Below are positions 20,537 through 55,561 of a DNA stretch of 64,000 nucleotides, in pieces. The notes below the pieces were generated by a model. The model was not told the origin of the DNA and ran no database searches. It saw only the letters and a list, made by a program, of their open reading frames with translations. The position numbers and the translations under genes are program-made. Within the stretch, counting starts at the first letter, position 1, and the number at the start of each line of letters is the position of its first letter. The stretch is from Promethearchaeota archaeon (GTDB taxonomy: Archaea > Asgardarchaeota > Lokiarchaeia > Sigyniarchaeales > SOKP01). The stretch spans positions 160,001-224,000 of the forward strand of contig JAHPZA010000009.1 in NCBI GenBank assembly GCA_019058445.1. The letters run 5' to 3'.

Positions 20537-21457
20537 TTGAGCTATAATCTAAGTTCAACCCAAAATAATAAAATTGATTTTCTCCTCATTGAAGAAAAAA
20601 TCAAAGAATTAGAAAAAAATCTTCATGATAATAATATCACTGAAATAACAGAATATAGGAAATGGAAAAGGGATTTTGAAATAATTTATGGCTCAGAATA
20701 CATTGATATTAGACTTTACATAAGTTTTGCCTTGATATATTTCACTGGACATTTTTTTATATCAAAATACATCTTAAAATCATCTGAATTTCATGATACT
20801 AAGAAAAATTTTGCTTTATGTATTAAAGAACTACAATCTAATATTAAAATTAGATTTAAAGATTTCGATTTATTCAATTTTGAATATTTCAATCCGATAA
20901 TATCCCTCATTAATAAGAACTGTTTGAGTCCTTTTCCACCTTTAACTCGCATGTTGACTGCTTATCTTTTTAAATTAGATATCGAACCTGTATATATGTT
21001 TGATTATTTGATTCAAACCATTATTTCTTCTCTTATAAGACATGGAAGTGGAGAATTTTATACTATGCCTTTTCTAGTAGAAAAAATGGTAGATAATTGT
21101 TATAATTTCGGAGAAAGAGTGCTTGATCCATGTTGCGGTTCTGGCAATTTTTTAATAGAAATAATGAAGAGAATTCTATCATCAAACAAACTTGAAAAAC
21201 AAAAAATTTTAGCGATAAATAATATTTATGGTTTTGATATTAACCCTATTTCGATTTTCATAACTAAAATAAATTTTTTAATATTACTCAAGGGATATTC
21301 TTCCAAGGTTAAAATTAATCTCTTGGTTGCTGATTCGCTCTTCCCTCAACAATTCTCTTCTAGAAATAAAGTTTTTATTAAAAATTCTTTAAATTCATAT
21401 GATTTAATTATCGGTAATCCTCCATTTGCCTTAATAATTCAAACGCAGGTGTCTTAA
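20537..21457 (+). pseudogene. N-terminal half of an N6-adenine DNA methyltransferase, interrupted after GNPP
   Basis: GEFYT, VLDPCCGSGNFL, GFDINP, DLIIGNPP, then 10 unrelated codons and a stop. Confidence 0.88.
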
Positions 21458-21459
21458 TA

Positions 21460-24063
21460 ATGGTAACAAGACTAAAAAATTTAATTAAACATTTAGCAGA
21501 ACAAGCAAGAATTTTACAAGAAGAAATTTATAAAAGTCTATCTGATCTTTCTAATGAAAAAGATTATATCGAAAATAAAGTTACAAGAATATATATTGAA
21601 AATATTCCCAATTTTCTAAAGAAAACAACATTTAAGAACAATAAAATTAATATTGAACAGTTCTCAGATTTCTTTTCCCAAATAATTATTAATTCTATTT
21701 TTTTAGGTTGGATAAGGTCTTATATAAAGGGAAACTCACCAAAAGAATTTAGAATATCATTTTTACAAGATATTTTACCAACGGTTCCGTTTATTAAAGA
21801 AATTTTTTTTAGTCTTAAATCAATTCTTCCAACACAAATATATGACAAAATAATCATATCAGTTGAAAAATTATTACGTAAAACTCAATTGAATATCGAA
21901 GAAAAAACAATGGATATTTTTATTGCTACATATTATAGTGATTTCTTATTATTTTACGATAAAGAAAAAGCAAAAGCTCTAGGTATTATTGATACGCCTA
22001 CTGAAATTGTTGATTATATGGTTGATGGTATCGACAAAATTCTAAAAAATTATTTTAATGAATCAAAAGGGATTGCCTCTCCAAATATAAAATGTCTGGA
22101 TCCTGCATCTGGAACCATGACATATACATGTAGCATAATACGCAAAGCATATAAAAATCTAAAATTAGAATATGAAACCGATTTTACAAATTTAATGCAA
22201 AAATTTGAACGGTGGATAATAAATCAATTTCTTGAAAACACTTATAGTTTTGAGATTTTAGATGTTCCTTATACTTTAGGTTATTTAAAAACAATAATGG
22301 TAATAGAGGATTTTGGCATAAATATTAATTGGTCAAAGTATAAATTGAAATCATTTCTTAATAATATTCTAATGGAAAGATCTTTAGAATTGTTAGAGTC
22401 TTCCTTAAGAATAAAAAAAATAAGTCAAGAAATAACAAATTCATCATGCATAAAATCTTTTAAAAATATTTTGATTGTATTAGGAAACCCTCCCTATAAC
22501 ATTTCTAGCAAAAATAATTCAGAATGGATTAAAAATAAAATAAGAGATTATAAAAAGGGACTAACAGAGAGGAATTTAAAAATTCTCTCTGATGATTATA
22601 TTAAATTTATTAGACTTTCACATTGGTTGGTTGCTGAAAAAAACAAAAATGGAATAATTGCCTTAATTACAAATAACAAGTATTTTTATGGAGACATTTT
22701 TAGAAAAATTAGAGAATCTCTTAAAAAAGATTTTGATATTATTTATAGTGTAAATCTTCATGGTGATATGAGAAAAGGTGAAAGTGGAAATCCTTTTGAT
22801 ATTAGAGTAGGGGTTGGAATTATTTTCTTAGTTAGATTATTTAATCATTCGGATGAAAAATGTAAGATCTTTACATTAGATATACCAGATGAATCAAAAA
22901 TTAAAAAATTTGAAAATCTAAAAGAAGGATTTAAATTTGAAAAATTTCATCAATTGCAAAATCTTAAATATTTTATAGATTTGGATACTAACTCAGATAT
23001 AGAAAAAGAGTTCGATTCTTACCAAGATATTAATGATTTTTTTATTCATAGACCTAAAAGTGGAATAATGACTGGAAGGGATACTTTAGTTATTAATATT
23101 ACTAAAAGAGAGTTAAATGAGAACTATCAACTTTTCTATAATAAAGAACTAGGAAAACTAAAAGCTAAAAATATCGAATTTAATAATACTAAAAATTGGA
23201 ATATTGAAGAAGCTTTAGATAAAAAAATAAAAGAAAATCCCAAAATTATAAAGATAAATTATCGCGGTTTTGATGTAAGATATTTGTTGTATGATCCTCG
23301 ATTAATTGAAGGTCATAGAATGGGATATATAGATCAGATTTCTATTGATAATCTTGCAATATCAACAACTAAGTCCATACGCAAAAACTCTAGCTTTTCT
23401 CATTGTCTAATAACAAAATACCCTATAGAGAAATGTTTTTTGTCTATAAACGATACATCCTATGCTTTTCTACAAAAATTTAATGGAAAAAATAATATAA
23501 AAATTCCAGATAACATTAAATTTCAAGTAGATTCCAACCAATTGTTTTTCTATATCTATGCGTTATTATTTTCAACTATATATAGAACTCGATATTCATC
23601 TCAACTTTTAAGATACTTCCCTAAAATTCCTCTAACTAATAATAAAGAACTATTTTTAAACTTAAGTAATCTTGGTCTGAAACTTGGAAGAATTCATTTG
23701 TTTATGGAGGATGAAATTGATGTAAAATACTTTCCAATAAGCTCTACTAAAAATTTTCTAATATCGGATGACTTCTATTATGATGAAAAAAAACAAAAAA
23801 TATTTTTTGGAAAAGAATTTGATAGATTTTGGATTGGAAAAATCACCTTTAAAATATGGAATTTTAAAATCGGAGGGAAAAGACAACTTTATGAGTGGTT
23901 ATATTCTAGGCGATATTCATGTAAATATAAGAAAAATTCAATCAAGAGAGCTTTAACCAAAAAGGAGATTAATTATCTTTTAAAAATATGCGCATCAATT
24001 AAAAAATCATTAGAAATTATTGATTTGATTGATCTTGATATAAAAAAATTATTAAATATATAA
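21460..24063 (+). CDS. Type IIG/ISP-like N6-adenine methyltransferase with specificity domain, apparently lacking an N-terminal nuclease
   Basis: TPTEIVDYMV, LDPASGT, GNPPY, DDYIKFIR, NLHGD, YRGFD.R, WNFKIGG. Confidence 0.88.
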   Translation: MVTRLKNLIKHLAEQARILQEEIYKSLSDLSNEKDYIENKVTRIYIENIPNFLKKTTFKNNKINIEQFSDFFSQIIINSIFLGWIRSYIKGNSPKEFRISFLQDILPTVPFIKEIFFSLKSILPTQIYDKIIISVEKLLRKTQLNIEEKTMDIFIATYYSDFLLFYDKEKAKALGIIDTPTEIVDYMVDGIDKILKNYFNESKGIASPNIKCLDPASGTMTYTCSIIRKAYKNLKLEYETDFTNLMQKFERWIINQFLENTYSFEILDVPYTLGYLKTIMVIEDFGININWSKYKLKSFLNNILMERSLELLESSLRIKKISQEITNSSCIKSFKNILIVLGNPPYNISSKNNSEWIKNKIRDYKKGLTERNLKILSDDYIKFIRLSHWLVAEKNKNGIIALITNNKYFYGDIFRKIRESLKKDFDIIYSVNLHGDMRKGESGNPFDIRVGVGIIFLVRLFNHSDEKCKIFTLDIPDESKIKKFENLKEGFKFEKFHQLQNLKYFIDLDTNSDIEKEFDSYQDINDFFIHRPKSGIMTGRDTLVINITKRELNENYQLFYNKELGKLKAKNIEFNNTKNWNIEEALDKKIKENPKIIKINYRGFDVRYLLYDPRLIEGHRMGYIDQISIDNLAISTTKSIRKNSSFSHCLITKYPIEKCFLSINDTSYAFLQKFNGKNNIKIPDNIKFQVDSNQLFFYIYALLFSTIYRTRYSSQLLRYFPKIPLTNNKELFLNLSNLGLKLGRIHLFMEDEIDVKYFPISSTKNFLISDDFYYDEKKQKIFFGKEFDRFWIGKITFKIWNFKIGGKRQLYEWLYSRRYSCKYKKNSIKRALTKKEINYLLKICASIKKSLEIIDLIDLDIKKLLNI

Positions 24064-24122
24064 TGATGGTTAATAAAAAAGTTAATAATCTCTCTTTTAG
24101 CTCTTATACTCAAATTAATTTT

Positions 24123-26801
24123 TTAAAAATTCTGATAATAATTCTTAAAATAAAACATCAATTTTACAATCTCTTTCCCTTTACTATTCATATAATATAC
24201 AGTCTGAGTTTTACCCTTTCCATAATTAATTTTACCGTATTTCTCCAAAATTTCTTTCCTCGTATTAAAAAATAAATTTACAGCTCCACTTTTTACTCCC
24301 ATTTTATTAGCAAGCTCTGAACTTGTTACTAAGCCTTTTTCTTCTGAGATTTTAAAAATTGTAAAAAAGTATTTTATAAAAGTTCTAGTTATTCTAATAT
24401 CAATATCCAAAGGATCTCTAGTTAATTCTTTATTATAAATTAGATTTAGTTTATATTGAATAAATGTACTCTTATTATCCTCCAAAACTTTTTTAAGTAT
24501 GTCTTTATCATCATAAATTTCTTCAATGTTCGATAAATCTTCATGAATTACAAAATGGCAATTATGACACATAAAACATCCTATATGATGTCTTTTCTTT
24601 AATTCTCTTAATATTTCAATACATGATTTGCTCTCAAACAATTTGGAAATGGAATTATTTTCTCTTCTTATTCGATCTTCCATACTAAGTTCCTTTAATT
24701 TATATAAATGACTGTATTCAAAACCAGGCAAATGGTCTTTAGAATTAAATTCTCCACAAATAGGGCAAATACCCCCATAAAGAAAATCAATAAAGAATCT
24801 CTTTTTTAGAAATTCTAAAATATAGACCTTCACTTTATCCTTTCTTTCCCGTATTTCTGATTTGTCTTTTCTAAAAGATTCGCTTACTATTTTATCCAAT
24901 GGAATATTATCCACACAAATCATAATAAGTGCATGGATAATTTCTGCGGGAAGCTCAAATATATCTTTATAAAAAAAATAAGATGGTAAATTTTCCCAAT
25001 TGATAAGTTTTTTAAAATTATTGAAATGGGTGGAATGTAATAAAATGTGATGTACTCCACATTTTACTACTACAAACTCTCTCTCCATTTTACGGATTAA
25101 ATCTCTCAAAAAAAAAGGATTACCTCGATTACTTAAAAATAAACCATATAAATCTTCGACAGTATATGTCTCATATTTATCACCTTTATGATGAAATTCT
25201 TTAGATATTATTCTTGGAAAAGAGGAATTAATCTCCAATTTTTCATATAAACAATCCTCACAATAAGGAATCTTGCTTATTATATCAAAATACTTACCAT
25301 TGTAAATATATTTCATCACATAAAGTTTAATTCTGTTACCAATAATTCTTTTCTTTAAATTATTTGTCTCATCTTCACTATATAAAGTCTGACCAGTCCT
25401 TGTCGGAATGGGAAAAAAATTTGAATATTTTGAATTTTTTAAAAAATCAACAATTCTACCAATTTCTTTGGCAAGACTTGATTCTTTTAAAAACATATTA
25501 ATATTTTTAGACATAAGATATTTGGCAAAATCAGAAATTATAAATTCCGCCTTTATTGTAATATGGGATTTATTTGATAATATCAACATTTTTACTATTT
25601 CTATTAAATCAGAAAAATATTTATCAAAAGTATCTGAATAGTTAGCCCCCATATCTTTATATTTTTTAATTTCTCTCTCCGTCAAATGTTCGAGAAAAAT
25701 ATTCTCTTTTTGAGTCAATTGTTTCTCTGCGCCAATAAAAATCTCTCTTAAGCGTAAAACAATTTTTGATACATCAAAGTTCTCTAAATGTGAAATAAGA
25801 CTTTGCAAGTCAATCTCTGCGTTATTTAATAACTCAAAAAAATAAAGGGAAAAAATTTTTCTGGATCTTCCTAACTGAGCATCTTTAAAACTATAATCTA
25901 ATCTTGGTGCTAAATCTTTATACCATCTTTTATATATTTTTGGAATTGAAGTATAATATGTATCCACTAGAATTGATAACTTTTTTCCTGTTATTCGAGG
26001 TAAATCCTCATTTGATAAAATAACAGCATAAATGATTGCTCCCGCATGTGATTTTATATTTGTATCACGCTTAATAATAATTTCACCATTTTCCGCTCTT
26101 GAAATGTGCTTATCTAAAATTTCTTCGGATTTAGATAAAATTATTTTCTTTTGCTTATCAGCACAATCAATTGAAGTAGTAATCATTTTAATTTGTTCCA
26201 TTATTCTTTCTCGAAAATTAGGAACATTTATGTTTGGTTTTTCCATTTTGTTATTCACTAAAGTTTCTCTCTCCTTTGGAATTATATCATCATCTGTATT
26301 AATTAACTCCTCAGAAAATTCTTCCTCTTCGATAGTGTCATATTCAATTACCCGTTCTGGTATAATATCGTCTTCTGTCAAATTACTCACCCCTACAACA
26401 TGTTCTTCGGTCTCAAACTCTATTTTTATTTCCTCTTGCTCTTCCTTTATTTCCTCTTGCTCTTCTGGAATATTATTCCTTTCAATACGTAAAATATATA
26501 TCGGTCTTTCATGGAATTCTATATTGGGTACACCCGCTATATAATCTTCGGTTTCCCATTCCTCTTCTCTTTCTGGAACGTAGTCTTGTCCTGAGATCTG
26601 TTCCCAATCAATTCCGCCATCATCCTCTACGTTGGACACACCTACAATATGTTCTTCTGCCTCCCATTCTTCTTGTGGAATTATATTTTGTTGTAGAGGT
26701 TCTTCCCAATCACTTTCTCCATTATCAATATTACTAACACCAAAGATAAATTCTTCGGTTTCCCACTGTTCTTCCTCGTCTTTTCTATCTTTTTCTGACA
26801 T
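24123..26801 (-). CDS. Multidomain protein: acidic repeats, TFB/cyclin-like helix bundle, two HNH-like Zn modules, C-terminal wHTH
   Basis: WETEE...GVSN repeats; SHAGAIIY...ITGKKLS...SIPKIYK; CEDC..EFHH..CGVHH; CPICG..EYSH..CHNCH; VTSSELANKMGV. Confidence 0.6.
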   Translation of the reverse strand: MSEKDRKDEEEQWETEEFIFGVSNIDNGESDWEEPLQQNIIPQEEWEAEEHIVGVSNVEDDGGIDWEQISGQDYVPEREEEWETEDYIAGVPNIEFHERPIYILRIERNNIPEEQEEIKEEQEEIKIEFETEEHVVGVSNLTEDDIIPERVIEYDTIEEEEFSEELINTDDDIIPKERETLVNNKMEKPNINVPNFRERIMEQIKMITTSIDCADKQKKIILSKSEEILDKHISRAENGEIIIKRDTNIKSHAGAIIYAVILSNEDLPRITGKKLSILVDTYYTSIPKIYKRWYKDLAPRLDYSFKDAQLGRSRKIFSLYFFELLNNAEIDLQSLISHLENFDVSKIVLRLREIFIGAEKQLTQKENIFLEHLTEREIKKYKDMGANYSDTFDKYFSDLIEIVKMLILSNKSHITIKAEFIISDFAKYLMSKNINMFLKESSLAKEIGRIVDFLKNSKYSNFFPIPTRTGQTLYSEDETNNLKKRIIGNRIKLYVMKYIYNGKYFDIISKIPYCEDCLYEKLEINSSFPRIISKEFHHKGDKYETYTVEDLYGLFLSNRGNPFFLRDLIRKMEREFVVVKCGVHHILLHSTHFNNFKKLINWENLPSYFFYKDIFELPAEIIHALIMICVDNIPLDKIVSESFRKDKSEIRERKDKVKVYILEFLKKRFFIDFLYGGICPICGEFNSKDHLPGFEYSHLYKLKELSMEDRIRRENNSISKLFESKSCIEILRELKKRHHIGCFMCHNCHFVIHEDLSNIEEIYDDKDILKKVLEDNKSTFIQYKLNLIYNKELTRDPLDIDIRITRTFIKYFFTIFKISEEKGLVTSSELANKMGVKSGAVNLFFNTRKEILEKYGKINYGKGKTQTVYYMNSKGKEIVKLMFYFKNYYQNF
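26425..26465. repeat. 21-nt period tandem duplication (EEQEEIK x2)
   Basis: TTTATTTCCTCTTGCTCTTC at 26425 and 26446. Confidence 0.85.
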
Positions 26802-26852
26802 TTTAATTCTTTTCCCAAATCGTAATTAAAATTCAATTAATTTAATCATCAT

Positions 26853-27350
26853 TTATTTTTTTTGCTCCTTTAACCAATAATATGTCCCATCTGTCTTCAC
26901 ATCATACCCTGTAGGTTTTTTTATAGAAAGTCTAGAACCTTTTTTCGCATCTACTTTGCAAACTCCATCATCGTTACATGTTGAACTCCCTTCTCCATCG
27001 ACAACGTCAATTATTGGAGTTGGTGCTTTTTGCTGAGTTGCTTGAGGTTGCGGAGTCTCTTGAATTCGGCATAAAAATTTATCTAATTGCTGTGGTCTTT
27101 CTACAATTTCCCCGCCATATTTCTTATTTTTAACATAATAACTCATACCGTTTATCCCTGTCATCAATATACCTCCATTTATATTTTCATTTATTAATTT
27201 GTATAAATAATTATCGCTACCCTGTATATATTTATCTAAATATACGGTGTAATGATTACCATTCACGCAAGGCATACACACACGATTTTTGAACGGACTA
27301 TTCCCTATTTTATACCAATACCCATCTAACGCACGCATAAAACAAGCCAT
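26853..27350 (-). CDS. Hypothetical protein, virus/MGE-like
   Basis: 165 aa ORF preceded by an AGGAAGTG RBS-like sequence. Confidence 0.6.
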   Translation of the reverse strand: MACFMRALDGYWYKIGNSPFKNRVCMPCVNGNHYTVYLDKYIQGSDNYLYKLINENINGGILMTGINGMSYYVKNKKYGGEIVERPQQLDKFLCRIQETPQPQATQQKAPTPIIDVVDGEGSSTCNDDGVCKVDAKKGSRLSIKKPTGYDVKTDGTYYWLKEQKK

Positions 27351-29065
27351 TTTTTTATCACTTCCTTTTATTTTTTATTAGTTTATTCATTTCCTTAAAC
27401 CTGTTTTTCAATAAATTTAATCTCGAAAAACTATTTTTCACATATCTATTTTGATACAAAATTATGACACTAATTTAATTTAGTTAAACCCATAATAGCC
27501 GACCTCTCCAATGAACGATTTTACTTAATTTTCCACAATAGAAACATTAAGATTTTTTGCATCTTATTTTGTTTATCAACCACCTTTCATCAAAATTTTA
27601 ATACACTCATTTTATAAATCCCATCTTATTTAAATAAATATCAAATTTATTCAAAAATTATATTTTGAAAAAGATTATTTTTCACTTCATTATTAGTATT
27701 TTTAGTCATACCTTCTCTAAAAGGGCTGAAAATAGTTTTTTGAGAAATTTTTTAAGATTAGATTTTTAGTTATTTAATTTTTTATATAAACCTTTTTTTT
27801 TGATGATATGGAATTTTGAGAAATATCATTGTTACCATTTTACCAAAATTTAGGAAAAAACATCCTGAGAGCCTACTTTAAGTTTTAAAAAATAAAATCC
27901 AAAAAAATTACCTTCTGTTTTTGATCTTAATTTTTAATAAGTTAAATTTTGATTAGATGAAATCAAGAAAAAAAATTTTAAATTCAAATTTTCGAAGTAA
28001 AAATATAATTACTAAAAAAATTCAAGATTACCTGTAGTATTTTTAACAGTTATCAAAAAATCAATCCAAAAAAATTTTTTGAAGTCTTTATAAATAACAG
28101 CTTAAAAATAAATTTAAACTCATAGTACCCAATTTTATTATTATCATTGCAATTCTTGGTTATGATGTTATAATTATTTTGATTGGATTAAAGACATAAT
28201 TAGGACTTTTGAATCATTAATTTTCTCATAATTTAAAAATTAAAGCATAAAAAGAAAAAAGTAATCTCAAAAAAAGCTACTTATTCAACGAGATTGAACT
28301 ATACAAATAATATTGAGAGATAGTTGATTTGAGATTTTTTTCTTGATTAATGTATTTTCTCGTATTATGAAAATAGTTGTTTAACTCGATCTTGGAGTAA
28401 AACTCTCACAACCTAACTATATAGCTACCTAAATAGGACTTCCCAAAACATTGATTATCAATACGAAAAAGGGGCTATTTTCCACGAACAGCCCTATATC
28501 TACTATTAAAACCCTTCTTATATAAATTTAACTTACATATCTGTATATACAATTTTGGCTAATGTTCATATTCATAAGATTTCGCATAAAACACGTGGAG
28601 AATTACCCATGAGATATTAAAATTATTTTCGATCAAAATAATCAAACCATACAATACACACAAAAAGAAAATTTTTGCATTTTTTAAATCATTCATATAT
28701 AAATAGGAAAAAAAAATTGTATTTTTATTTTTATACTCCTATAGATCAGATCATTATGGTGCAAATTGTTGAACAAGATAGTAATATTCTAAAGATTTAA
28801 TGAAAGACGTTCATTTTTTGAAAAGGCGTGAAGTTAAATTTATAAATAAAAAGATATATATTAGATATTTTCGTTGTCAAAAATATTAACACTGAGAAAA
28901 TTCGTGGATTATAACTGCAGTAAATGAATTATCTTTTCGCTAGTGAGTTCTAAGCATATCTTTGAGATATTCTAAAAGCACTTCATTTTTTTGAGTTTAT
29001 TGATTCGCTTAATTTTTGGTTTACTTCTTCGCCTAAATTTTCAAACATATTTTTCAATTGAAATT

Positions 29066-29410
29066 TTATCTTTCTAAAAAATAATTTAAATCATTAATTA
29101 TCATATTGAGAAGATTAGGATCAGCTCCTGTTCTCATCAATTCCAACTCTAAATCCTTAAAGTCAGAAATCTTGAATCGAAAGGTAGGATTAGTAAAGTT
29201 TTTCTGTAAATCGTAAAACTCCTCATAACTATACTCAATACCCTGTTGTTCGATATATGTTTTAATAATGAAATAGAGTAATTCTCCTATGAGTTTTTCA
29301 AATAAATCTTGTCCGTACTTCTCTTTGAATTCGATACAAAATTTTTCAATTCCTCTCAAATCGGACAGAGTGCAGTTTAAAACCCTTTCCGATACTTTTT
29401 GTTCAATCAT
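29066..29410 (-). CDS. Hypothetical protein
   Basis: Last intact ORF of a tightly packed minus-strand operon; GGAGG RBS. Confidence 0.65.
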   Translation of the reverse strand: MIEQKVSERVLNCTLSDLRGIEKFCIEFKEKYGQDLFEKLIGELLYFIIKTYIEQQGIEYSYEEFYDLQKNFTNPTFRFKISDFKDLELELMRTGADPNLLNMIINDLNYFLER

Positions 29411-29420
29411 AATTTTTTAA

Positions 29421-29777
29421 TTACCTCCTTCTTTTTCTTAAAATTAATTTCTTTTTTGTAGAGGGTGTATGTATTTCCATTTGTTCGATAAATTCTTGTA
29501 TATCTATTTTCTCCTTCCTTAATAGCTTATAATGAATGGTTTTACTCCGATGTACTTCTTCTAATATCCCTTTCTTTTGTAAAAATTGGAGAGAACGCCC
29601 TATAAAGTTAATCTTTGACCTGTTAGACGAATCTACATTTAAATACTTCCTTACTTTTCTGGTATTTATATAAGAAATGTGTTTATCAATGAATAAATTA
29701 ATTGCGTATAATGTGTCTTCCAAATTTCTTACTCTTATATCAATTGTCATCTGTTTTCCCTCTTTTTTGCTTCTCAA
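29421..29777 (-). CDS. Small winged-helix-like DNA-binding protein
   Basis: INTRKVRKYL...FIGRSLQFLQKKGIL...Y pattern. Confidence 0.55.
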   Translation of the reverse strand: MRSKKEGKQMTIDIRVRNLEDTLYAINLFIDKHISYINTRKVRKYLNVDSSNRSKINFIGRSLQFLQKKGILEEVHRSKTIHYKLLRKEKIDIQEFIEQMEIHTPSTKKKLILRKRRR

Positions 29778-30318
29778 ATAGAGTATTCACAAATTGTTCT
29801 AACTCCTGTAAATCCTTGTCTTTAGAGAGATCTTCTTTATTTGCGGTAAATCTGTATTGTTCGCTTTCTGGGTAAAATTTGTTTTCAATACTGTTCTCAC
29901 CCTCATAATTCGGCTCAAACGATATTGTATGAGAGTTAATTTTATGCGTATATTCTATATCTTCCATTTCACTTTCTTCTGTATCATCTTCCTGCTCCGA
30001 ATAGTAATTATCATCTTCTTTGAAAAATAAAGAAAGAAACAAATAGACGGAAATTAACAATAGAAAGAAAAAAGTCATGGTAAATACAAATTTAAAATCT
30101 GCTCTCGGTGGGATCTGTGTTCCCTCTAAATTGGTAAATGAGCTTACCATGTAAAATATTAGAGATATAGCAATTAGGATACAAATGATAACTTTTAATC
30201 CCCTCCATTCGTGTCCTTTCTTATAGGTAATGTAGAAGAAAATAGCTAATCCGAATAAAATTAAGCTCACTATAAGATATACTACAAAAAACTCCATTGA
30301 ATCGGTAAAATCGGTCAT
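29740..30318 (-). CDS. 3-TM membrane protein with acidic tail
   Basis: Three hydrophobic helices followed by a D/E-rich region. Confidence 0.65.
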   Translation of the reverse strand: MTDFTDSMEFFVVYLIVSLILFGLAIFFYITYKKGHEWRGLKVIICILIAISLIFYMVSSFTNLEGTQIPPRADFKFVFTMTFFFLLLISVYLFLSLFFKEDDNYYSEQEDDTEESEMEDIEYTHKINSHTISFEPNYEGENSIENKFYPESEQYRFTANKEDLSKDKDLQELEQFVNTLFEKQKRGKTDDN

Positions 30319-30469
30319 TTTAGATATTCTACATATACCCTCTTTTTATTTTTTATTACATTCGGCTTTAGGGATAAAGAGGCTACCCCGCTCTTTAATA
30401 TCTTGCGAATATAAGAAACTTAGTTTGAGCAACTCTTTACCTTCCCCGCCTGTTAATAATATGGTAGTA

Positions 30470-30700
30470 TCATAAATCGAGAAGTATTATTTTCAAATCC
30501 TCGATAATCCTTTCTTTTCCCTCCAAATTTACAGTTTTTATTTCATTTATCAATTCTTCGACCAAAATCGGATTACACGATTGCCCACCTATAACTACGA
30601 CTTGAATAATAAAATCTAATTTCTGTTCCCACTCACGCTTTTTAGCTCGTTTAATTGATAGTCTTGCTCTGAATTTAGATCTTTTATCTTTATAATACAC
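30470..30700 (-). CDS. Small hypothetical protein
   Basis: Overlaps the upstream ORF; GTG start. Confidence 0.5.
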   Translation of the reverse strand: MYYKDKRSKFRARLSIKRAKKREWEQKLDFIIQVVVIGGQSCNPILVEELINEIKTVNLEGKERIIEDLKIILLDL

Positions 30701-31020
30701 TACTCTTTAATCTCCTCATTCTTTTTCTTTCATTTCTTAATATACTTCTCTTTCTTCTATACCTATTTACTCTTCTGGTAAGACGAGAAATAGAACGGTG
30801 TAATCTGTTCTTCCCCGCATCTAACATTTCTTCTTTTATTCTGTTTACCCTTATTGCTTGTTCTAACGCCATTGCTTCTAATTCTGCAAATGTATATTTG
30901 TTAGCAATTGTGCCAAGAATACATATCGCAAACTGTTTAAAAATTTCGGCGATTTTGTTTTTTTCCTCTTTTTTTTCTTTCTTGGGTGGTGGTAATTCTC
31001 CTAATACACTTAAATGCATT
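30690..31020 (-). CDS. Basic coiled-coil hypothetical protein (start uncertain, ORF extends to 31109)
   Basis: Arg-rich C-terminus; ATG near 31020 follows an AGGA RBS-like sequence. Confidence 0.5.
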
Positions 31021-31041
31021 TGTCTATCCTTACCATTATTT

Positions 31042-31866
31042 TTAAATTTGTGAGGGGGATTTGGTAAACGCTTGAAAGATAAATACCGCATACCAGCAAC
31101 TATTTTCAAAAAAAATCCGAAAGCACTTTGCTAACGGAGAGCTCTTAATTCTATTCTGTTTGACATCTGTGCGTATATCTACCACGCATAAAATGGAAAA
31201 TCCGCTAATCCCCGATTGTCTATTGACTTGATCTAAATGTTCATGGAATAATTCAGAGATAACTAATTCAATATCTTCGTGTTTGGACTTCTTGAGCAAT
31301 TTATCTTCAATCGGAATCCCATCAACTACGTGATCTACCATACCATCTGAAATTCTAACCTCGTTTTTTACTCGTTCTCCGAATTGTCCGCCTAAATAAA
31401 AGTTCATAAGCGGGTGCATGTCTTTTACCTCTGAGTTCCACGTTTGAGCTTTCATTCGCAAAAATTTTTTGTCATTATAAGAGGTATATAAACATCTCGA
31501 ATAAAATTGAATTAGATTAAACCATGCTGACATATGTTTTGTAAGTGTTGAATTGACTTCAAAAAACTTTAATTGTGCTAATTGGGTATTTAGTTTGGGA
31601 TTAATTGCAGGAACTCCTGTTTCTATGTAGATTTTTTGAGTTGGGTTTATCCGTAATTGATGTGACTCCAAAAGTGATATTGCTCGATATAGTAGAGAGG
31701 TTAAAACCTCTACTTTCTTTGAATAAAGCTGTACTTCTGATTCATACCTTTCATCTATTTCTAAAAAATCTTTAGTATTAAATTGTAGCTTTTCAATTCC
31801 CCTGCTCTCACTACTGACTATTGGATTTTTATTGGGAAACATTGCTACATCCCCCTCTTGTTTCAT
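31042..31866 (-). CDS. Putative PD-(D/E)XK nuclease-fold protein
   Basis: EVRISDGMVDHVVDGIPIEDKL pattern. Confidence 0.55.
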   Translation of the reverse strand: MKQEGDVAMFPNKNPIVSSESRGIEKLQFNTKDFLEIDERYESEVQLYSKKVEVLTSLLYRAISLLESHQLRINPTQKIYIETGVPAINPKLNTQLAQLKFFEVNSTLTKHMSAWFNLIQFYSRCLYTSYNDKKFLRMKAQTWNSEVKDMHPLMNFYLGGQFGERVKNEVRISDGMVDHVVDGIPIEDKLLKKSKHEDIELVISELFHEHLDQVNRQSGISGFSILCVVDIRTDVKQNRIKSSPLAKCFRIFFENSCWYAVFIFQAFTKSPSQI

Positions 31867-32255
31867 TTCTTATATGACCCCATGCTGAAATTTTTCTCAC
31901 ACTCCCTCAAACCTTTTAAATTATGCCTTTTTCCGACAAAAACTTCACTTAGTCGTGAATAAATTTTTATCAATAGTCTAATAATTATTAAATAAGTATT
32001 TAAATCTTGTGACAGTTTTCATAACCCTTCTTATATAGATTATAGAATATTTTATAATCATTAAAAATCCAATTAAAATACTATTTAGATAATCAAAAAC
32101 TGATTCTTAGTATAATAATAAAAACCATACTTATTCTTAGATAAATCAGAAAAATGTGTGGTAGTTATTATAAAAAGAATTAAATAATTCTCTGATCATT
32201 ATAAGAATCGTAATAAGTAAAATTAAATTAGGTACTTTATTATTGTGATATAATT

Positions 32256-32411
32256 ATGCCTTCGATTGATGTATCTGAAAACGTGAAGGAAAGGTTAGAA
32301 AAGGTTAAAGAAAAGTACGGATGTAAAACGTACTCGGAAGCTGTAAACATAATTCTCTTACTTTTAGAAGAAAAGGAAAAAGCAAACAAATCCTCTTCAA
32401 ATTCGCACTAA
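32256..32411 (+). CDS. Ribbon-helix-helix/antitoxin-like DNA-binding protein, 51 aa (not in ORF track)
   Basis: MPSIDVSENVKERLEKVKEKYGCKTYSEAVNIILL; divergent from the 31866 operon. Confidence 0.7.
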   Translation: MPSIDVSENVKERLEKVKEKYGCKTYSEAVNIILLLLEEKEKANKSSSNSH

Positions 32412-32653
32412 TCGTCTTTCGCTGTTTTTCGCTATTTTTATTCTTTTTCTCTTTTTAACATATAATATTGTTTTAATGTTTCCCTTGTAATTCTTGAAAT
32501 AAAAAAGGGATATTAGAGTCTAAATCATAATTCAAAAGAAAGACTTATCATTGATAAATGAATAAAGTCTTAAGTTAAAACTTAAATACATTTATGTGAT
32601 AAAATATATTATTATTAATAATAAAGACATTAATTAGAGGTGCAATTCTAAAA

Positions 32654-33145: not shown

Positions 33146-34177
33146 TTAAATTTTAAAAACTGGACAGATTCTTTTATTTCGTATTAATTTTTTTCTAAAT
33201 CTTTTAATTTTTTCATTAAACCATATGTCATCGATAAAATTATTTACCTTTATAACATCTATACCTTCATACATCAATTCTCCTTCTAAAAATGAGCAAG
33301 GGTATGCTATTCCCTCAACATTTATATATTGGCTAAAACAATTACTTTCACATGATTCTATCATCATTTCTAAGAATTTCTTTTTTTCATTATTTTGAAT
33401 TATTTTTAAGAATTTTTTTGCCGAACAGCTATCAAATCCTATTGAAATTTTTTGGTTAAGAGCATACTGGACTAGATCAGAAAATTCAACTTGAGATATT
33501 GCATGAAAATCTTTACCTCTTCCCTTCTGCTTTAGACTTAAGAGAATTATAGCATTTAAGCTACTTAATCTAACATCATTTTTTGTCTTATCTATTAAAT
33601 CATAACAACCTTTTAGCGTTTCTTTTGTTACTAATTTATGAATATTTACTTGTTTTATCCCAACATTGATCAATAGTTCTACTGCATTAAAACAATATTC
33701 ATCATTATAGTGGCTAACCGCAACCGCACCACAATATTTTGCTAATCGTTTTGCCCATTTTTCATTAATTTTATATCCATTAATTGTTATATTGGGTACT
33801 ACCTGATTTTTTTGACAATATTCAAACATTTTCCATAAATCTTGATTTGCATCTAAATCACCAATACCAAATGCGATTTGAATTAAATTCTTAGGAAATT
33901 TGTCAAAAATTAATTTAAATGTTTCAAAACTCATATTTTTTCCATTAGTTGTATTAGATTTATAGCACCAAGGGCAACTACCACTACATATTGTTGATAC
34001 TTCAATATCTAAGATTTCAGGTCCGAAAGGGCTATATTCTGGATCATCTCGTTTATTTTTTCCCCACCTTGCGAAAAATCCATTTTCCATATTAAATATA
34101 TAGTTATACTCTTCGCTTTTTACAAATTTCACATTATTTTTATAATAAATCTCTTGATTAATTAAAAAAATCACCAT
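33146..34177 (-). CDS. Radical SAM protein with SPASM/twitch-like C-terminus
   Basis: CSGSCPWCY, CES...YI...G..YPCSF, terminal CP; true start may be the GTG near 34132. Confidence 0.9.
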   Translation of the reverse strand: MVIFLINQEIYYKNNVKFVKSEEYNYIFNMENGFFARWGKNKRDDPEYSPFGPEILDIEVSTICSGSCPWCYKSNTTNGKNMSFETFKLIFDKFPKNLIQIAFGIGDLDANQDLWKMFEYCQKNQVVPNITINGYKINEKWAKRLAKYCGAVAVSHYNDEYCFNAVELLINVGIKQVNIHKLVTKETLKGCYDLIDKTKNDVRLSSLNAIILLSLKQKGRGKDFHAISQVEFSDLVQYALNQKISIGFDSCSAKKFLKIIQNNEKKKFLEMMIESCESNCFSQYINVEGIAYPCSFLEGELMYEGIDVIKVNNFIDDIWFNEKIKRFRKKLIRNKRICPVFKI

Positions 34178-38848: not shown

Positions 38849-38956
38849 ATGGTTAAGTTGTCAAGATTAAAGGGATATAGAAACAGGAGATAGACTCTAT
38901 TTTTGTCTATAGAGGGTGAAATCCAATGATATACCTAATGATTCTTGCTAATCCAT
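38849..38956 (+). repeat. Structured dispersed element, copy 1
   Basis: GGAGA-hairpin-AGAGGGTGAAATCCAATG inside an enclosing stem. Confidence 0.65.
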
Positions 38957-39020
38957 GTAATATTTTTACCTAAGAGTATATAAATACTACTGTAGATTAT
39001 TATTATTAGACCAAAAACCA

Positions 39021-39141
39021 TGACTCCTGCCACACCCTGGATTTTTGTCTTTTGGTTAGTGTATGAAAATACACTCTGATTTTGCCCTCCTCCCCCTATT
39101 TAATTTTTAACCTTGTATTGAGGTTGAGTGGCAAGGAGTCA
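39021..39141. ncRNA. Candidate multi-stem structured RNA/DNA element
   Basis: TGACTCCTGCCAC / GTGGCAAGGAGTCA closing stem, AGTGTAT-GAAA-ATACACT and AACCT...AGGTT hairpins. Confidence 0.55.
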
Positions 39142-39235
39142 CCTTTTCAAAAAATATTTATTCAAATTCAAAAATATTTATACTAAAGACAAAACACAGA
39201 TTTCAAAAAAAATTCAATTATAGGATTTATTTAAA

Positions 39236-43509: not shown

Positions 43510-43736
43510 TAAGTAATTTAAAATGCTTATTTAATTTATTTTTTAAAAAAATCTCTAATTTTGCTAAAAATAACAACCTTATTTTATAACCTTACATTGA
43601 CTAATTTCATAAAAGATTTAGAGTTTTGTACAATTCAACAAATTTTCTTACAATACTAATATTGTTGTCTAAGGGCGGGAGTCATCTTTTTTCTATTCTA
43701 TTCTTAATTAAATAAATATAAATCTAAAAATAGAAA

Positions 43737-43846
43737 AAGAAAGGAATCCAAATTCAATCAGAAAAGCAAAAAAAGAGAGAGTTAAACTTCTTAAAAGTCT
43801 AACAGGGCGAAATCCAATGTAAGACTGAATTTTTTGATTCTTTCTT
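43737..43846 (+). repeat. Structured dispersed element, copy 2
   Basis: GAGAGA-hairpin-AGGGCGAAATCCAATG inside an enclosing stem. Confidence 0.65.
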
Positions 43847-44133
43847 ACTTAAACAAATAGAGGTAAAATTAATAAATTTACTGTATTTCTTTCTTTCAAA
43901 TTCTTTTTAGATCCGATTGAATTCTCTCCCTAATTTTTTGGGGAATGTCTATTGTCTCTTGAACTTTCGACTTTGGTTCTACCATTAAATCCTAATCTGC
44001 TTCTAATATGAATTGAATAAACACGTAAACACTAGCATAAAAAAGAAGTAAAAATGAAGATTGTATCAAGACAACATATCATAAAAAATAAAATTATAAA
44101 AAAAAAGTGAGATGAAATCTCACATTAAATTAG

Positions 44134-48030: not shown

Positions 48031-49509
48031 ATGAAAGAATTAAATTATGAGAAATTTATAGAATTCTGTAGAAAAAAAATCAAAGAAGGTAAATTTTTTG
48101 AAAAAGTATTAGGGATATATTATATTATTACTGCCATATTTTTATCTTCTTTATATTATTCTTTAGATTTTTTAATTTTTGTAACAATTCTTCTCATATT
48201 TACATTATCATTTATAGGGCCTTTAGTAATAATAGGTATAAGATTTAAGTTTCCTTGGAAAAAGAATGTTAAAAATTATAATGAAAAATTCTATAGAGAA
48301 GTAAAAATACTTTTTTCTGGAAATATACTAGATGATAAGAATTCTTTAGAGAGTTGTAGGTCATGGTTTTCTAAAGCTAGAATTTTTGATGGAATAAAAT
48401 TTAGTGGCTATATTCTTAGCATATTTCTATTAGTATATTACATTTTGTTATTAATAGAAATAGTTATATTGAATTTTTCAATGATTTATGTTGAAAAAAA
48501 TACAAATTTTATTTTCAAATTCCTCTTCAATCCTTTTTTAAAATATTATATATTTTGTTTAACATGGTTCTTATTGTTTAACATTACAGAACTATATATT
48601 AATCGATTAAAATTAACAATTGATGATATTATCAGAGAAGCTTATAATGATATTGAAGATAAGAATGATAATATTTTCTCTATTTTAAATAATCCAGATT
48701 CCATTAATTATGAAGATCTTCAAAAAGATATAAAAACAGAAATAATTAACATCCAGAATCTTTATTCTTTAAATATTCTTAAAGTATTAAAAAAATCAGA
48801 ACATCGATTTAAGCTAAAATATTTATATAAACAATTTAAAGTGGGGGGTAGATTTGATCTCATTAAAATAATAAACAGTTATTTAAAGTGTATTGAAATT
48901 ATCAATTCTAAAAATGAAGATTTTGAATATTATGACGTTTTCTATAATTATTCAACTATTTTAGCTAAATTAAAAAAAGAAATTATATTAGAGTCAGAAA
49001 GTATCATAAATGAAACTAAAGACTATTTAAATGAGTATAAAGAAGTAAGAGTTAATAAAACGGATATAAGAGAAAAAAAGAACACAATTAATAATCTAAT
49101 TAGTGATTTTGAATTAACAATTCGACAATTTATTAAAAATCAATTAAAAAAACATTTTAGTGAAGATTGGTGGAATCAAGGTATCCCCTCAAAAATACGA
49201 AAAGATGCTGAAGTCCTTAAATCAAAAAAAGAAATAATTGAACCTAAAAGAACATATCAAGTTATAGATTTTCTCACATTTATGGATTACTCTAATATTA
49301 TTTTAAATAAAAAGAATTGGAATAACATCTTCAGTGATTTTTTTAATCAAAAATACATCTTTCAAGCACCATTCGAAAAGTTAACATATATTAGGAATGA
49401 TCTTGCTCATAATAGATTTATAGAAGATGATTTTGAACGATGCAAAACTTATATTAAAGATATTTTGAAATATATACCAGATTTTAATCGGAACTGTATA
49501 TTAAATTAA
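48031..49509 (+). CDS. 4-TM protein with C-terminal Swt1-like HEPN domain
   Basis: FELTIRQFI, DWW..GIP, NW..IFSDFF, IRNDLAHNR. Confidence 0.78.
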   Translation: MKELNYEKFIEFCRKKIKEGKFFEKVLGIYYIITAIFLSSLYYSLDFLIFVTILLIFTLSFIGPLVIIGIRFKFPWKKNVKNYNEKFYREVKILFSGNILDDKNSLESCRSWFSKARIFDGIKFSGYILSIFLLVYYILLLIEIVILNFSMIYVEKNTNFIFKFLFNPFLKYYIFCLTWFLLFNITELYINRLKLTIDDIIREAYNDIEDKNDNIFSILNNPDSINYEDLQKDIKTEIINIQNLYSLNILKVLKKSEHRFKLKYLYKQFKVGGRFDLIKIINSYLKCIEIINSKNEDFEYYDVFYNYSTILAKLKKEIILESESIINETKDYLNEYKEVRVNKTDIREKKNTINNLISDFELTIRQFIKNQLKKHFSEDWWNQGIPSKIRKDAEVLKSKKEIIEPKRTYQVIDFLTFMDYSNIILNKKNWNNIFSDFFNQKYIFQAPFEKLTYIRNDLAHNRFIEDDFERCKTYIKDILKYIPDFNRNCILN

Positions 49510-51940: not shown

Positions 51941-51960
51941 AAACCCATTTAATAAAGAAC

Positions 51961-52188: not shown

Positions 52189-52236
52189 ATCATGTAGATA
52201 TTACCCTATTAAAAGAGCTGAAAGAAAGAGACCTGA

Positions 52237-52493
52237 TTAAATATTAAAATATCTCAAATCATTAACGGGAAAGAACATAATTTAGCTTCAGAAGATGTAA
52301 ATAAGCTAATAGAATTTCAACAATTACGGAATGTTTATGCTCATGGTGATGGTACAATTACTCAAAATTATCTTGATAAAATTCCGAATTCTAATTTCAA
52401 GCTAGGTTAGCGACTAGAAATATCTCAAGAAATATTACTAAAGAGTTATTATATAGTAATAAAAACTATCAATAATTTAATAAAGCATTTATA
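52237..52493 (+). pseudogene. Degraded HEPN-domain gene
   Basis: LIEFQQLRNVYAHGDGTITQNYL...FKLG*RLEIS; in-frame TAG at 52408-52410; no start. Confidence 0.65.
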
Positions 52494-52559
52494 GAGAAAT
52501 ATCCTGAAATAATTTCCAATAAAAATAATTTGTGAAAATTATTAACTTGGTTTGAAAAT

Positions 52560-53498
52560 ATGATCCCTATTAATTCATTTCCAATTTGGAGAAAATTTTT
52601 TGATTTTAAGAAATACTCCGAATTGGTTGATAATAGTATTATTCAAATTACTGAAGACTTTAATGCAAGATATAAATTTATTGAAAAAGAAAACGCAAAA
52701 GATATTTTTTGGAAATTAGCAACATTGCAGAAAGAATTAGATCCGAATAATTGTTATGATATTTTTGCGTTATTTATTGGAAGAATGCTATTCTATGAAA
52801 TTCTTAAAAAAGAAAAAAGTAATGTTGAAGAACAATATCAAATCCATAAAGAATGGTTTGAATATATATCTAGACGAATCAAACCTCATGTAGCAAAATT
52901 ATCTGAAAAATTTTTACGGATATTATTCTCTTATTACCCCGCTGGAGATATTACAGAAGGAGTTTCGAAGTTAGAAATGACAAAAGATATGATTGAAGAA
53001 TTTGATATTCTTAATGTCCTCGTGAATCCAAGAATAAATGCATATAAAAAAGTTCGGGCTTTTAAAGAACAATATATGAACTTTTATGATCTCTTTTTAG
53101 ATCGATGTAAGTTAATTGGTGATGAACTGTCTAGATATGAAGGAAATAGGAAAGTTGGTAGATATGGAAAGGATCCTTATAACATTTTCCAATTAAGAAA
53201 TAATAATCAATATACACCTCCAGATTTTATCAAAGATATGATAATTGAACTTGTCCATATAAGAAATGCTTGTGCTCATTTGGGGATAACAGTCTTAAAC
53301 GAAAATGAAGTACAAATTATTGATAGATATCCTAATGGTGAAATAAGCTTTAATGAGACAGTTCAAATAAAAGATTTAATCATATATTTTATTAGATTAT
53401 TTTCACTTGATAAAGAATTTGAGAATTTAGCATTACTAATATATATAATTGGCTGGTTAAATGAAATAAGCCTAAAGAGAACTGAAGAGTCTAAATAA
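52560..53498 (+). CDS. HEPN-domain protein
   Basis: IRNACAH motif. Confidence 0.65.
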   Translation: MIPINSFPIWRKFFDFKKYSELVDNSIIQITEDFNARYKFIEKENAKDIFWKLATLQKELDPNNCYDIFALFIGRMLFYEILKKEKSNVEEQYQIHKEWFEYISRRIKPHVAKLSEKFLRILFSYYPAGDITEGVSKLEMTKDMIEEFDILNVLVNPRINAYKKVRAFKEQYMNFYDLFLDRCKLIGDELSRYEGNRKVGRYGKDPYNIFQLRNNNQYTPPDFIKDMIIELVHIRNACAHLGITVLNENEVQIIDRYPNGEISFNETVQIKDLIIYFIRLFSLDKEFENLALLIYIIGWLNEISLKRTEESK

Positions 53499-53578
53499 CT
53501 TTTATTATAAGGTTTTCTAAAAAGGTATTCACAGTATCCCAACAGTTATCTTAGAATTTTTCCCTTAATTCTCTTTTT

Positions 53579-53821
53579 TCAAATAATTTTTAAATCGGAT
53601 TTGATACTCTTTCTAATTTTTTGAAGAAGATCTATTGCTTCTTGAACTTTCGATTTAGCTTGTACCGTTAAATCCTTATCGGCTTTCAAATTAAATAAGG
53701 TCATGTTGGGAATGTCTTTTCGCAATTCGTTTAAATTTTCCATTATCATATCGACATTTTCAATTTCTTCAATTAGTTGTTTTTTGGTAATAATATGACT
53801 TTTAGTTATTCTTTCAATCAT
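53579..53821 (-). CDS. Small helical hypothetical protein
   Basis: 80 aa ORF. Confidence 0.5.
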   Translation of the reverse strand: MIERITKSHIITKKQLIEEIENVDMIMENLNELRKDIPNMTLFNLKADKDLTVQAKSKVQEAIDLLQKIRKSIKSDLKII

Positions 53822-54175
53822 TTCTTAATATTCTAAATTTCCTATGTTTACAAGAATATCTAAAAAAACCTATTTAAAGTAAGAATTAGAAATAAGAATA
53901 GTTCATAGAGGTATGTAATGTTGAGTATCAATTTATTGGAAAATACTTGATATATCTATAAAATATTAAATTAGATGATCATAGAATAAAGATAGACAAT
54001 AATTTATCGGTAAATTTTAGGACTTGTCTAATTATTGCTTTTATCCCTTCTATTATCAATATAATACACTTTTTTTGTATTAATTTTACGGGTATCAATT
54101 TCAATACAGTAACTAAAAAAATAATTCAAAAGGTTATGGATTTTTTTTTAAATAGTCACTCTTATTTTTATTAGA

Positions 54176-55561
54176 ACCTTTAGGGATATTTCATCAATAA
54201 AATATCAAAATCAAATAAAATTATTAGCAGAAAAATTAAGAATAAAGCCCTTACCTAAAAATATCTTGAATATTGAAATATCTGCACTTTTTTTTTACCA
54301 AGCAAAAGAAGTTTATTTAAAGAATAATGGTAAAATTTTCTTTGTAATAACCAAAGGAGTGATAACAGGTTCCCATACTTCTCGTTTTCGCAATTTTAGA
54401 GGATATAAAAACGTTAAAATATGGAGCTTTGAACCCCGGTTAGAGAAATTGTTCAATATTGGTTTCATCTGCTTATTTGCCCAGAAATCAGAAAATACCT
54501 CAAAACTTTACAATAAAAAAATTACACATTTTCACGTTGAATTAAAAAACGAAGCTTACCAGATTGAATATTTTAGTAAGTTGGAATTGAAAATTGTAGA
54601 GAAAGATGTATTATTACCTTATTTTATTGAGAAAAGAGGAAAGAAAATCTTTACAAAGAAACTCATTCCACAAAAATTGTCTAAGGATCTTTTACCATAT
54701 GCTGAAAGTGTATATAAAAAATTGTTTCATAAGGGGGCAGATATAAATCCCAGAAATCTCATATTTGTGAACTATGAAGAAATTGAAGATAATTTAATTA
54801 AAATAAACCCAGATAAAAGAATATTTAAGAGAGCTAAAGCTCCATGGAATCTGAAAGAGTTCAATGATGAAATTGTAGAGAAAAAATATATTTTTAAAGT
54901 TATCAAAAGCACGGAGTTAGTTAAATTTCAAGTATTTGACTATTATAATGTTTTCTTACCTCTTTCTAATGGAAATTTTAATTACGATTATAATGAATTA
55001 ACTGATAATGCTAAGCGTTTTTATAATAAAATCAATCAGGTTTATTTAAAAAAAAAGAAATCTACCACAAAACATTCATCACTTTTAGAAAATCTTAATC
55101 GATGGTCGAAGTTGATAAATCAGCGTCAGCAATCGAAAATAAAATGTGTATATAATAATTCGGGATCAATTTTGAATTCTGCAGTGGTTTTAGGAGATTT
55201 TTTAGTAACCGGGGATTTATCTTTTTATGATACAGATAGCCTTGATGAAGCTTATTATTTGTCATCAATATTAAATTCAAATTTAATGCAAAAGCAAGTT
55301 AAAATAAGAAAGAGTTCCAGACATATTTTTAAAATTCCCTTTGAAATTCCAATTGAAAAATATAATACACACAACAAAAATCATAAGCATTTAGCAGAGA
55401 TTGGAAAGCAGTGTCAAAAAATTGCAGAAAAAACAACAAAAAAGTTGATGTTAAAGAGTTCTCATAATATTTCAAAGATTAAACTTCAAAAGGCACTTAA
55501 AAACAGATTAAATCCTCTTCTAACGCAAATAGATGAGATATTAAAATTAGAGTTTAACTGA
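54176..55561 (+). pseudogene. C-terminal half of the interrupted N6-MTase (rest of catalytic domain plus TRD)
   Basis: Reads TFRDISSIKYQNQIKLLAEKL..., LKNNGKIFFVIT, EAYYLSSILNS; lacks SAM-binding motif I and NPP. Confidence 0.85.

Follow-up and report, generated by a model that had tools for sequence, protein, structure and literature searches.

How does a conserved methyltransferase gene in an archaeal chromosome come to lie in two halves on either side of a 32.75-kb island, and what is the island that separates them? The question is raised by a 64,000-nt stretch of DNA (the window; positions 160001-224000 of contig C9 of genome G000), taken from a 4.6-Mb, 10-contig metagenome-assembled genome that is 92.6% complete with 4.3% contamination. 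Homologues of the window's genes in public records carry the names Promethearchaeota or Lokiarchaeia. Most described integrative elements depend on integrases and tRNA-type sites. To our knowledge, little is known about the gain and loss of large gene blocks in Asgard archaea. This locus offers a clean before-and-after view: in relatives the gene is intact between the same neighbours, and in the window it is interrupted by a large defence island without the usual machinery.

The upstream half of the gene (N-half) is a 306-amino acid (aa) open reading frame at 20537-21457 on the forward strand, assigned by Pfam matches, orthologue identity and synteny. Its Pfam matches (N6_Mtase, 1.8e-13; Eco57I, 1.5e-7) reach motif IV. 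Residues 1-296 are homologous to the orthologues as far as GNPP, and the final 10 codons, with the stop, come from the island side, so that the C-terminus of the N-half reads ...DLIIGNPP-FALIIQTQVS-stop, with TAA at 21455-21457. The downstream half (C-half), at 54176-55561 on the same strand, comprises 461 codons and a stop, and has 79-81% identity to orthologues from end to end, uninterrupted by stops or frameshifts. Its frame is open from 54152, and homology starts at the T of TFRD at 54176 and continues to 55561. By itself the frame at 54152-55561 has no Pfam match.

An intact 734-aa paralogue on the same contig matches residues 39-298 of the N-half and then residues 9-464 of the C-half without a gap. 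Matches were found in 54 of the 61 sampled genomes (G000 included), among them about 27 clear orthologues with 50-79% identity; these are mostly single open frames of 739-787 aa, and in every full match the C-half query aligns from its residue 9 onwards. The closest genome with a long contig is G003, in which the flanking genes are collinear on both sides and the halves abut, with one codon between the two matches. The identity to the nearest orthologue is 70% for the N-half and 81% for the C-half, and the ratio of these values equals that within pairs of orthologues; therefore, both halves are of vertical descent. We conclude that 20537-21457 and 54176-55561 are the halves of one Eco57I/N6_Mtase-type gene of about 750-760 aa. 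The initial annotation had joined them in the same way, and the assignment held, because both match the same paralogue and the same single orthologous frames, in synteny with G003; rather than belonging to different families, the halves align to adjacent parts of intact homologues. The database names of these homologues range from N-6 DNA methylase to tRNA methylase, and no partner nuclease gene adjoins the split gene in the window or the compared G003 locus.

The interruption falls in the codons of the catalytic motif. GNPPW[YF]T is present in 115 of the 120 homologues listed, and the DNA at the junction reads CCTCC-TTGGTAT-ACTTTTCGG in the orthologue versus CCTCCA-island-ACCTTTAGG in the window. 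Thus TGGTAT, the codons for W-Y after NPP, is absent from the split gene, and the earlier estimate of about two missing codons proved to be exactly two. In the orthologues the SAM (S-adenosylmethionine)-binding motif I, the NPPW motif IV and the downstream domain are joined in one polypeptide, which is not the case in the split gene, where the chain ends 10 codons past NPP. As judged from the sequence, the split gene would be unable to make an intact enzyme and the host enzyme is predicted to be dead, inactivated for good, which agrees with the disabling of the host methyltransferase proposed at the outset. Since the 757 codons of this AT-rich split gene contain no stop or frameshift, the inactivation is probably recent.

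The inserted island occupies 32,751 nt (21425-54175, no strand assigned), with borders set to about ±2 nt by orthologue DNA that is continuous across the site in G003. Evidence from sequencing runs was taken from Logan contigs of the probable source run, X1, and of other runs, and such contigs drop rare variants. A 13,376-nt contig of run X1 covers 16120-29495 through the left junction with 0 differences at a depth of 26.8. The non-repeated bins of the island in this run have a depth of 26-34, equal to that of the host flank, and the bins at 29.6-32.7 kb have about double depth, as expected for a block of which the genome has two copies. From a second sample of the same study comes a 512-nt contig that lies over 21375-21725 with three differences (~1%); it crosses the left junction, and therefore the junction is also present in a slightly different strain. 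In runs X3 and X4, pieces of the N-half with about 99% identity (20890-21344 and 21137-21338) end before the junction, and cover of the island is low. Neither a joint nor a loose end was listed for the contigs at the left junction, and no excised form was seen among them. We conclude that the 32,751-nt insert is genuine. The origin of the sequence in a metagenome-assembled genome with some contamination might nevertheless point to an assembly artefact, and the open frames kept by both halves might point to a functional enzyme made in two pieces or rejoined in development. We consider either very improbable, because the two junctions lie in one and the same pair of codons, the left one is bridged at even depth by an independent contig, the W-Y of the catalytic motif is missing, and the earliest canonical start codon of the C-half is a TTG at 54266, with none near the junction. 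Joining by trans-splicing or through a bulge-helix-bulge was rejected as well, since pairing of the N-half's end region with the lead of the C-half gives a duplex energy of -19.8 kcal/mol versus a shuffled mean of -20.0.

The ends of the island were then compared with each other and with the rest of the genome. No target duplication was found at the junctions, where six target bp were lost instead; there is no terminal inverted repeat linking both island ends and no shared sequence at the junctions themselves. The initial annotation had likewise found neither a target duplication nor a terminal inverted repeat, but had missed an 11-nt direct repeat, AATAATTCAAA, whose only two copies in the window are at 21433-21443 (forward strand, 8 nt inside the left junction) and at 54120-54130. 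The chance probability of an 11-nt repeat in two 60-nt end windows is about 0.0075. The last 44 nt of the island (54132-54175, forward strand) have no counterpart elsewhere in the genome beyond short matches at chance level, and a short-word BLAST search of the genome with the bases nearest the junctions returned no match above chance level. Directed into the C-half and 22 nt before it is a TATA-like TTTAAATA (54147-54154).

No tyrosine or serine recombinase was detected in any frame of the island, and Pfam, PHROGs and NCBIfam searches of the island reading frames returned no recombinase, so that the absence of a recognisable integrase noted earlier persisted through six-frame and profile searches. 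In the six-frame search of the whole genome, PF00589 (Phage_integrase) was found only at C9:114618 and C6:27026, both outside islands, and PF00239 (Resolvase) and PF16795 (Phage_integr_3, SSV-type) were not found. A provirus or plasmid was rejected, as the island has no PHROGs or NCBIfam hallmark (one weak NCBIfam match is below the cut-off), no tRNA and no Rfam family.

The gene that characterizes the island encodes an 892-aa signature protein (24123-26801, reverse strand). Alignment and an AlphaFold (AF2) model place acidic repeats, a TFB/cyclin-like region, two HNH-like Zn modules and a C-terminal winged helix in it. The protein has no Pfam family, with only weak zinc-ribbon matches and no Pfam HNH match. 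It aligns with 13 homologues at 29-44% identity, and the resulting 14-member alignment has invariant CxxC...HH...CxxHH and CPxC...H...CxNCHxxxH columns. The AF2 model (predicted local distance difference test score, pLDDT, 74.7) gave weak matches to the TFIIB/Brf2 cyclin fold and matches to MarR-type winged helices, and the domain of the Zn modules alone (pLDDT 79.4) gave no clear fold (Foldseek best E 0.43, VIA best Z 4.2). Its look-alikes in a language-model comparison are phage HNH nuclease clusters (0.84-0.89), which serve as a lead only. The gene is patchily distributed: the 154 genomes of the order include 30 with at least one copy, often with several, and G000 has three.

BLAST of the island against the genome revealed a collinear relative, a 33.5-kb island on contig C1 (about 52650-86213). 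Both islands have a signature protein, which in the C1 island is a 932-aa homologue, 3.2 kb at 97% nucleotide identity, a HEPN gene at 92% identity and a non-coding right end at about 73% identity. In the window, this right-end region spans 53897-54131 (forward strand), and its homology with the C1 island extends no further than the right copy of AATAATTCAAA, 45 nt inside the right junction. The C1 island sits in a conserved 342-aa helix-turn-helix gene beside the SAM synthetase gene. There, the host's N-terminal ~130 residues are left as a fragment next to the synthetase gene, nearly identical to those of relatives, and the island provides the working gene with a diverged N-terminal part (56% identity). 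Other members are smaller or composite. In G021, an insert of about 2.9 kb holds little beyond the signature gene, and its target's N-terminal 125 residues are duplicated. At C9:269650-274240 of G000 lies a small intergenic member of about 4.5 kb that is not present in G005 and G009. G006 and G004 carry a composite insert at the SAM synthetase locus. In the members checked, the signature gene is at or near the island border, and the insertion points within genes are at conserved residues, namely RRG/GG in the 342-aa gene, VGGIS/K in the SAM synthetase gene and VIVPI/EG in G021 (the slash marks the point of insertion).

The window island thus belongs to a recurrent family of integrase-less islands, as an atypical member: it has no replacement gene part, nothing homologous to the N-terminal part of the host methyltransferase lies at its right end (53822-54175 is non-coding), and its target is destroyed, whereas other members restore theirs. 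Later deletion of a replacement N-terminal part was considered and rejected, because the deletion would need to end within two codons of the insertion point, which is too unlikely. A GGAGGA word shared by the insertion points of three members was also set aside: it is equally explained by Gly-Gly and Pro-Pro codons of conserved motifs, and the G006 site misfits.

Several side observations were made at the loci of this family and elsewhere. At L059 (G006:C98, 9532-9762 and 11711-12946), and likewise at L060 (G004:C121), the SAM synthetase promoter and the first ~70 codons are copied upstream, ending in ...VGGIS. A citrate-transporter gene lies between the two synthetase copies and a signature-protein gene lies further upstream, at a locus that is also used by the C1 island. 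In the C1 locus, the island and host copies of the N-terminal part of the 342-aa gene share 36 identical nt (G000:C1:52840-52875 and 86395-86430) while their proteins are 56% identical, which could reflect gene conversion or a functional DNA site. Next to the small member on contig C9, at C9:267404-269641 (L061, outside the window), a Mg-chelatase-like gene is split into 196 + 531 aa versus a single frame of 738-754 aa in six relatives of the genus; this could be a frameshift, a mini-intron or a pseudogene. At L064 (G128:C78, about 14083-14113), an alcohol-dehydrogenase-like gene that is continuous in its G000 orthologue is interrupted in frame by about 31 nt. This insert contains a stop codon and a 9-bp palindromic stem (...VKRCGI-insert-CGSDVH...) and resembles tRNA-type mini-introns.

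The first gene of the window island lies directly behind the truncated host gene. It encodes an 867-aa methyltransferase with a target-recognition domain (21460-24063, forward strand), type IIG/ISP-like and without a nuclease domain, as indicated by Type_ISP_C and PADLOC matches. Its ATG at 21460 is 2 nt past the stop of the N-half, with AGGTG 9 nt upstream, and the initial annotation was right to call it another NPPY methyltransferase; it is unrelated to the host enzyme. The gamma-class N6-adenine motifs NPPY and DPASGT are present. The Type_ISP_C match has an E-value of 3.1e-46, and the PADLOC match REase_MTase_IIG (1.6e-73) covers the methyltransferase and specificity part only. The three closest homologues are 54-57% identical and 961-1049 aa long, and the closest long one (P0122) sits in an unrelated defence cluster. 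The alignment begins at about residue 174-187 of the long homologues, 94 of which extend 144-193 residues (median 167 aa) further at the N-terminus, some with an HSDR_N nuclease domain in this extension. The start of the island protein is shared by about 12 distant homologues, which are 808-890 aa long. The missing N-terminal nuclease part is neither at the right end of the island nor anywhere else in the genome. An SSV-type partition of the gene by its own element was rejected for this reason. The island methyltransferase may either have been truncated by the insertion event or have been short already beforehand. Judging from the arrangement of the two reading frames, read-through transcription from the promoter of the host gene with re-initiation at the island methyltransferase is plausible.

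How, then, did the island enter the gene? The explanation that we favour, and to which we give about an even chance, is break-and-join capture, in which island DNA was taken up by illegitimate end joining at a double-strand break in a single insertion into the motif-IV codons. In such an event, the 32.75-kb island would have been placed into the NPP/WY codons with 6 bp lost and nothing duplicated. The double-strand break may be the work of the nuclease-like protein that the island itself encodes. Joining of the captured DNA would have proceeded without a site-specific integrase, so that the event would not be reversible, and it would have placed the type IIG/ISP-like methyltransferase behind the truncated gene, where it could be read from the host promoter. 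End-joining capture is favoured because 6 bp were lost, because there is no duplication, recombinase or replacement part, and because of the unmatched 44 nt and the even depth.

Several observations weigh against this explanation. A nuclease role of the signature protein is a motif-level reading combined with the language-model lead, to be treated as a lead only, and the Pfam HNH and fold searches give no confirmation. The island methyltransferase begins at a natural domain boundary common to the short forms, and the left border is thus not necessarily an arbitrary break. Neither a donor sequence nor an empty site from the same species was found: the closest orthologue in the protein collection is 81% identical, and exact-pattern scans of metagenome contigs returned no empty site and no other context of an island end. 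Furthermore, the 11-nt repeat near both ends could be the footprint of a short attachment core, and the junction-proximal bases are alike in the window and C1 islands (left, TTTGCCTTAATA and TTTACTTAATA; right, TTATTAGAA and TGAGTAGAA). The resemblance between the ends of the two islands hints at recognised ends.

The last two points are what would be seen if an unrecognised recombinase, either the signature protein or a factor acting in trans, had integrated the island site-specifically at a short or degenerate core such as AATAATTCAAA, in which case the island could still excise. The right copy of the repeat at the point where homology to the C1 island stops, and the behaviour of family members, which act like integrative elements with a replacement gene part, fit this alternative. 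We nevertheless regard it as unlikely. The copies of the repeat lie inside the junctions rather than at them, and recombining them gives a frame with a stop and does not rebuild the gene; six target bases are missing; no frame encodes a recombinase; island and flank have equal depth; and the G021 member lacks such end sequences, its own ends being different. The repeat and the resemblance of the ends are the main reason why site-specific integration keeps a small but appreciable probability.

A homing-type insertion, in which the HNH-like protein cleaves motif-IV DNA specifically and the island is copied into its cognate target, has a similarly small probability. The insertion lies at the most conserved site of a conserved gene, which is typical of homing elements and is the same in other members, and the signature gene is patchy and multi-copy with HNH-type look-alikes. 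On the other hand, none of the orthologues recovered from the 61 sampled genomes is interrupted at the motif-IV site; all but three matches are in open frames of at least 650 aa, and of these three, two are at a contig end and one has an internal stop elsewhere. A cognate target is therefore unsupported. In addition, the closest homologues of the signature protein sit in other genes, no replacement gene part is present here, and the nuclease fold is unconfirmed.

Comparison of the locus among relatives bears both on the age of the interruption and on its consequence. G006, a genome of the same genus that is 99% complete, has, in the slot of the split gene, a full-length 1081-aa enzyme of the island methyltransferase family between the CxxCxxCC gene and the Ras-like GTPase gene. 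This enzyme is oppositely oriented, and no remnant of the conserved gene is left in the slot. In G013, 674 nt separate the CxxCxxCC gene from the metallo-beta-lactamase-fold gene, and this interval holds neither methyltransferase nor GTPase. Thus the locus is labile: most genomes keep the gene intact, G006 has a type IIG-like gene and in G013 the slot is empty. A separate observation beside the split gene is a 428-aa C92-peptidase-like gene (18390-19676) that is unmatched in the G003 locus and skipped by the collinear matches; it may mark a second, small indel.

This variability, together with a junction that recurs in the second sample with about 1% difference, would also be expected if the interrupted allele were older, one allele of a variable methyltransferase/restriction slot that arrived from another lineage by homologous recombination through the conserved flanks. 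Such an origin is quite improbable, because the orthologue identity of both halves is as expected for vertical descent and the interrupted allele was found in no further genome or metagenome contig.

The initial annotation had further proposed an epigenetic swap, in which the element disables the host methyltransferase and places its own under the same promoter. Only 3 of the 36 family genomes sampled were found to have the type IIG-like enzyme, and 1 of the 9 other genomes in the genus. That both genus members with such an enzyme have it at the same slot is unlikely to be a coincidence. The island and G006 enzymes are only about 38-42% identical and therefore represent separate acquisitions. 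The swap proposal is thus partly supported: a full-length type IIG/ISP-like enzyme in place of the conserved gene in G006 lends it some comparative support, which stops short of demonstrating a change in methylation. An extended version of this idea would treat the TFB-like/double-HNH-like protein as the mobility nuclease of an undescribed class of integrase-less islands that hit the codons of conserved motifs. In the window this would have produced a methylation swap, with the host methyltransferase killed and a nuclease-free type IIG-like one under the host promoter, and with a similar outcome reached independently at this locus in a sister species. We put this forward tentatively, as a rather doubtful proposal.

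The rest of the island is cargo and backbone. A block of small backbone genes (29066-32486, reverse strand) includes the segment at 29279-32480 with 97% nucleotide identity to the sister island on C1. It is followed by a radical SAM/SPASM enzyme (33146-34177, reverse strand), which is cargo, and by an OLD-family ATPase-TOPRIM nuclease (34314-36302, reverse strand; AAA_15 4.9e-23, OLD-like_TOPRIM 6.4e-11, PADLOC Old 1.5e-26), which is defence-type cargo. The HEPN (Swt1-like) protein, encoded at 48031-49509 on the forward strand, is the one with 92% nucleotide identity to its copy in the C1 island. Further content includes a weak NYN-like RNase and many reading frames without any match, with about 25 cargo genes in total. 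At 27375-29065, 1.7 kb of the island has no open frame of more than 59 codons on either strand and no Rfam match, and may represent genes in decay or else non-coding RNA. Copies of a dispersed repeat (about 120-240 nt; 38917-39167 and 43678-43847) occur with 72-90% identity on C1, C4, C6 and C9. An internal direct repeat of 115-123 nt (43888-44013 and 53572-53696) has 77-80% identity.

The locus shows that a widely conserved methyltransferase is dispensable and that it was twice exchanged for a type IIG/ISP-like enzyme. Any resulting change in methylation pattern is directly testable through the methylomes of close relatives. The only constant gene of the family encodes a transcription-factor-like protein with nuclease-like motifs, and if this signature protein is the mobility enzyme, then it would represent a previously unknown way for islands to spread among the archaea most closely related to eukaryotes.

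The passages searched in two reports on Asgard mobile elements (PMC8813620; bioRxiv 10.64898/2026.08.12.739948) describe elements that bear integrases or use tRNA sites, or viruses without integrases, and contain no mention of HNH or of such an island. The nearest known counterpart is the C1 island, which shares a homologous signature protein, the collinear backbone, the right end, defence-type cargo, the absence of an integrase and insertion at a conserved patch. The C1 and G021 members, however, supply a diverged N-terminal replacement part that keeps the target whole and leaves a displaced fragment, which the window island does not do, and the window island, unlike that on C1, has a methyltransferase gene between the signature gene and the island border. 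Among gene-interrupting, prophage-like elements, skin in Bacillus subtilis sigK, SPbeta in spsM and phi10403S in Listeria comK resemble it in that an element of tens of kb splits a chromosomal gene into two open halves. Elements of that type have a serine or tyrosine recombinase and defined attachment sites, and the gene is rebuilt on excision; for the window island, no recombinase was found, 6 bp are missing and no excised form was seen in the contigs. In Helicobacter and Neisseria, restriction-modification genes undergo allelic substitution at one locus and insert into other genes. Here, too, alternative methyltransferase or restriction genes occupy one locus in related genomes, but the new methyltransferase heads an island of 32.75 kb and many genes, and this island severs the resident gene instead of taking its place. 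A further comparison is with free-standing homing endonuclease genes and with hybrids of these, such as the phage seg and mob genes and the mobile reading frames of fungal mitochondria with replacement gene ends. The island family shares with these its highly conserved coding sites, a patchy multi-copy spread, the absence of an integrase and minimal members that hold little beyond one nuclease-like gene; the window island differs from them in its size of 32.75 kb with about 25 cargo genes, in a nuclease that is unconfirmed and in having no homologous replacement segment at its site. Set beside these systems, the window island is a new, non-restoring variant of the integrase-less island family.

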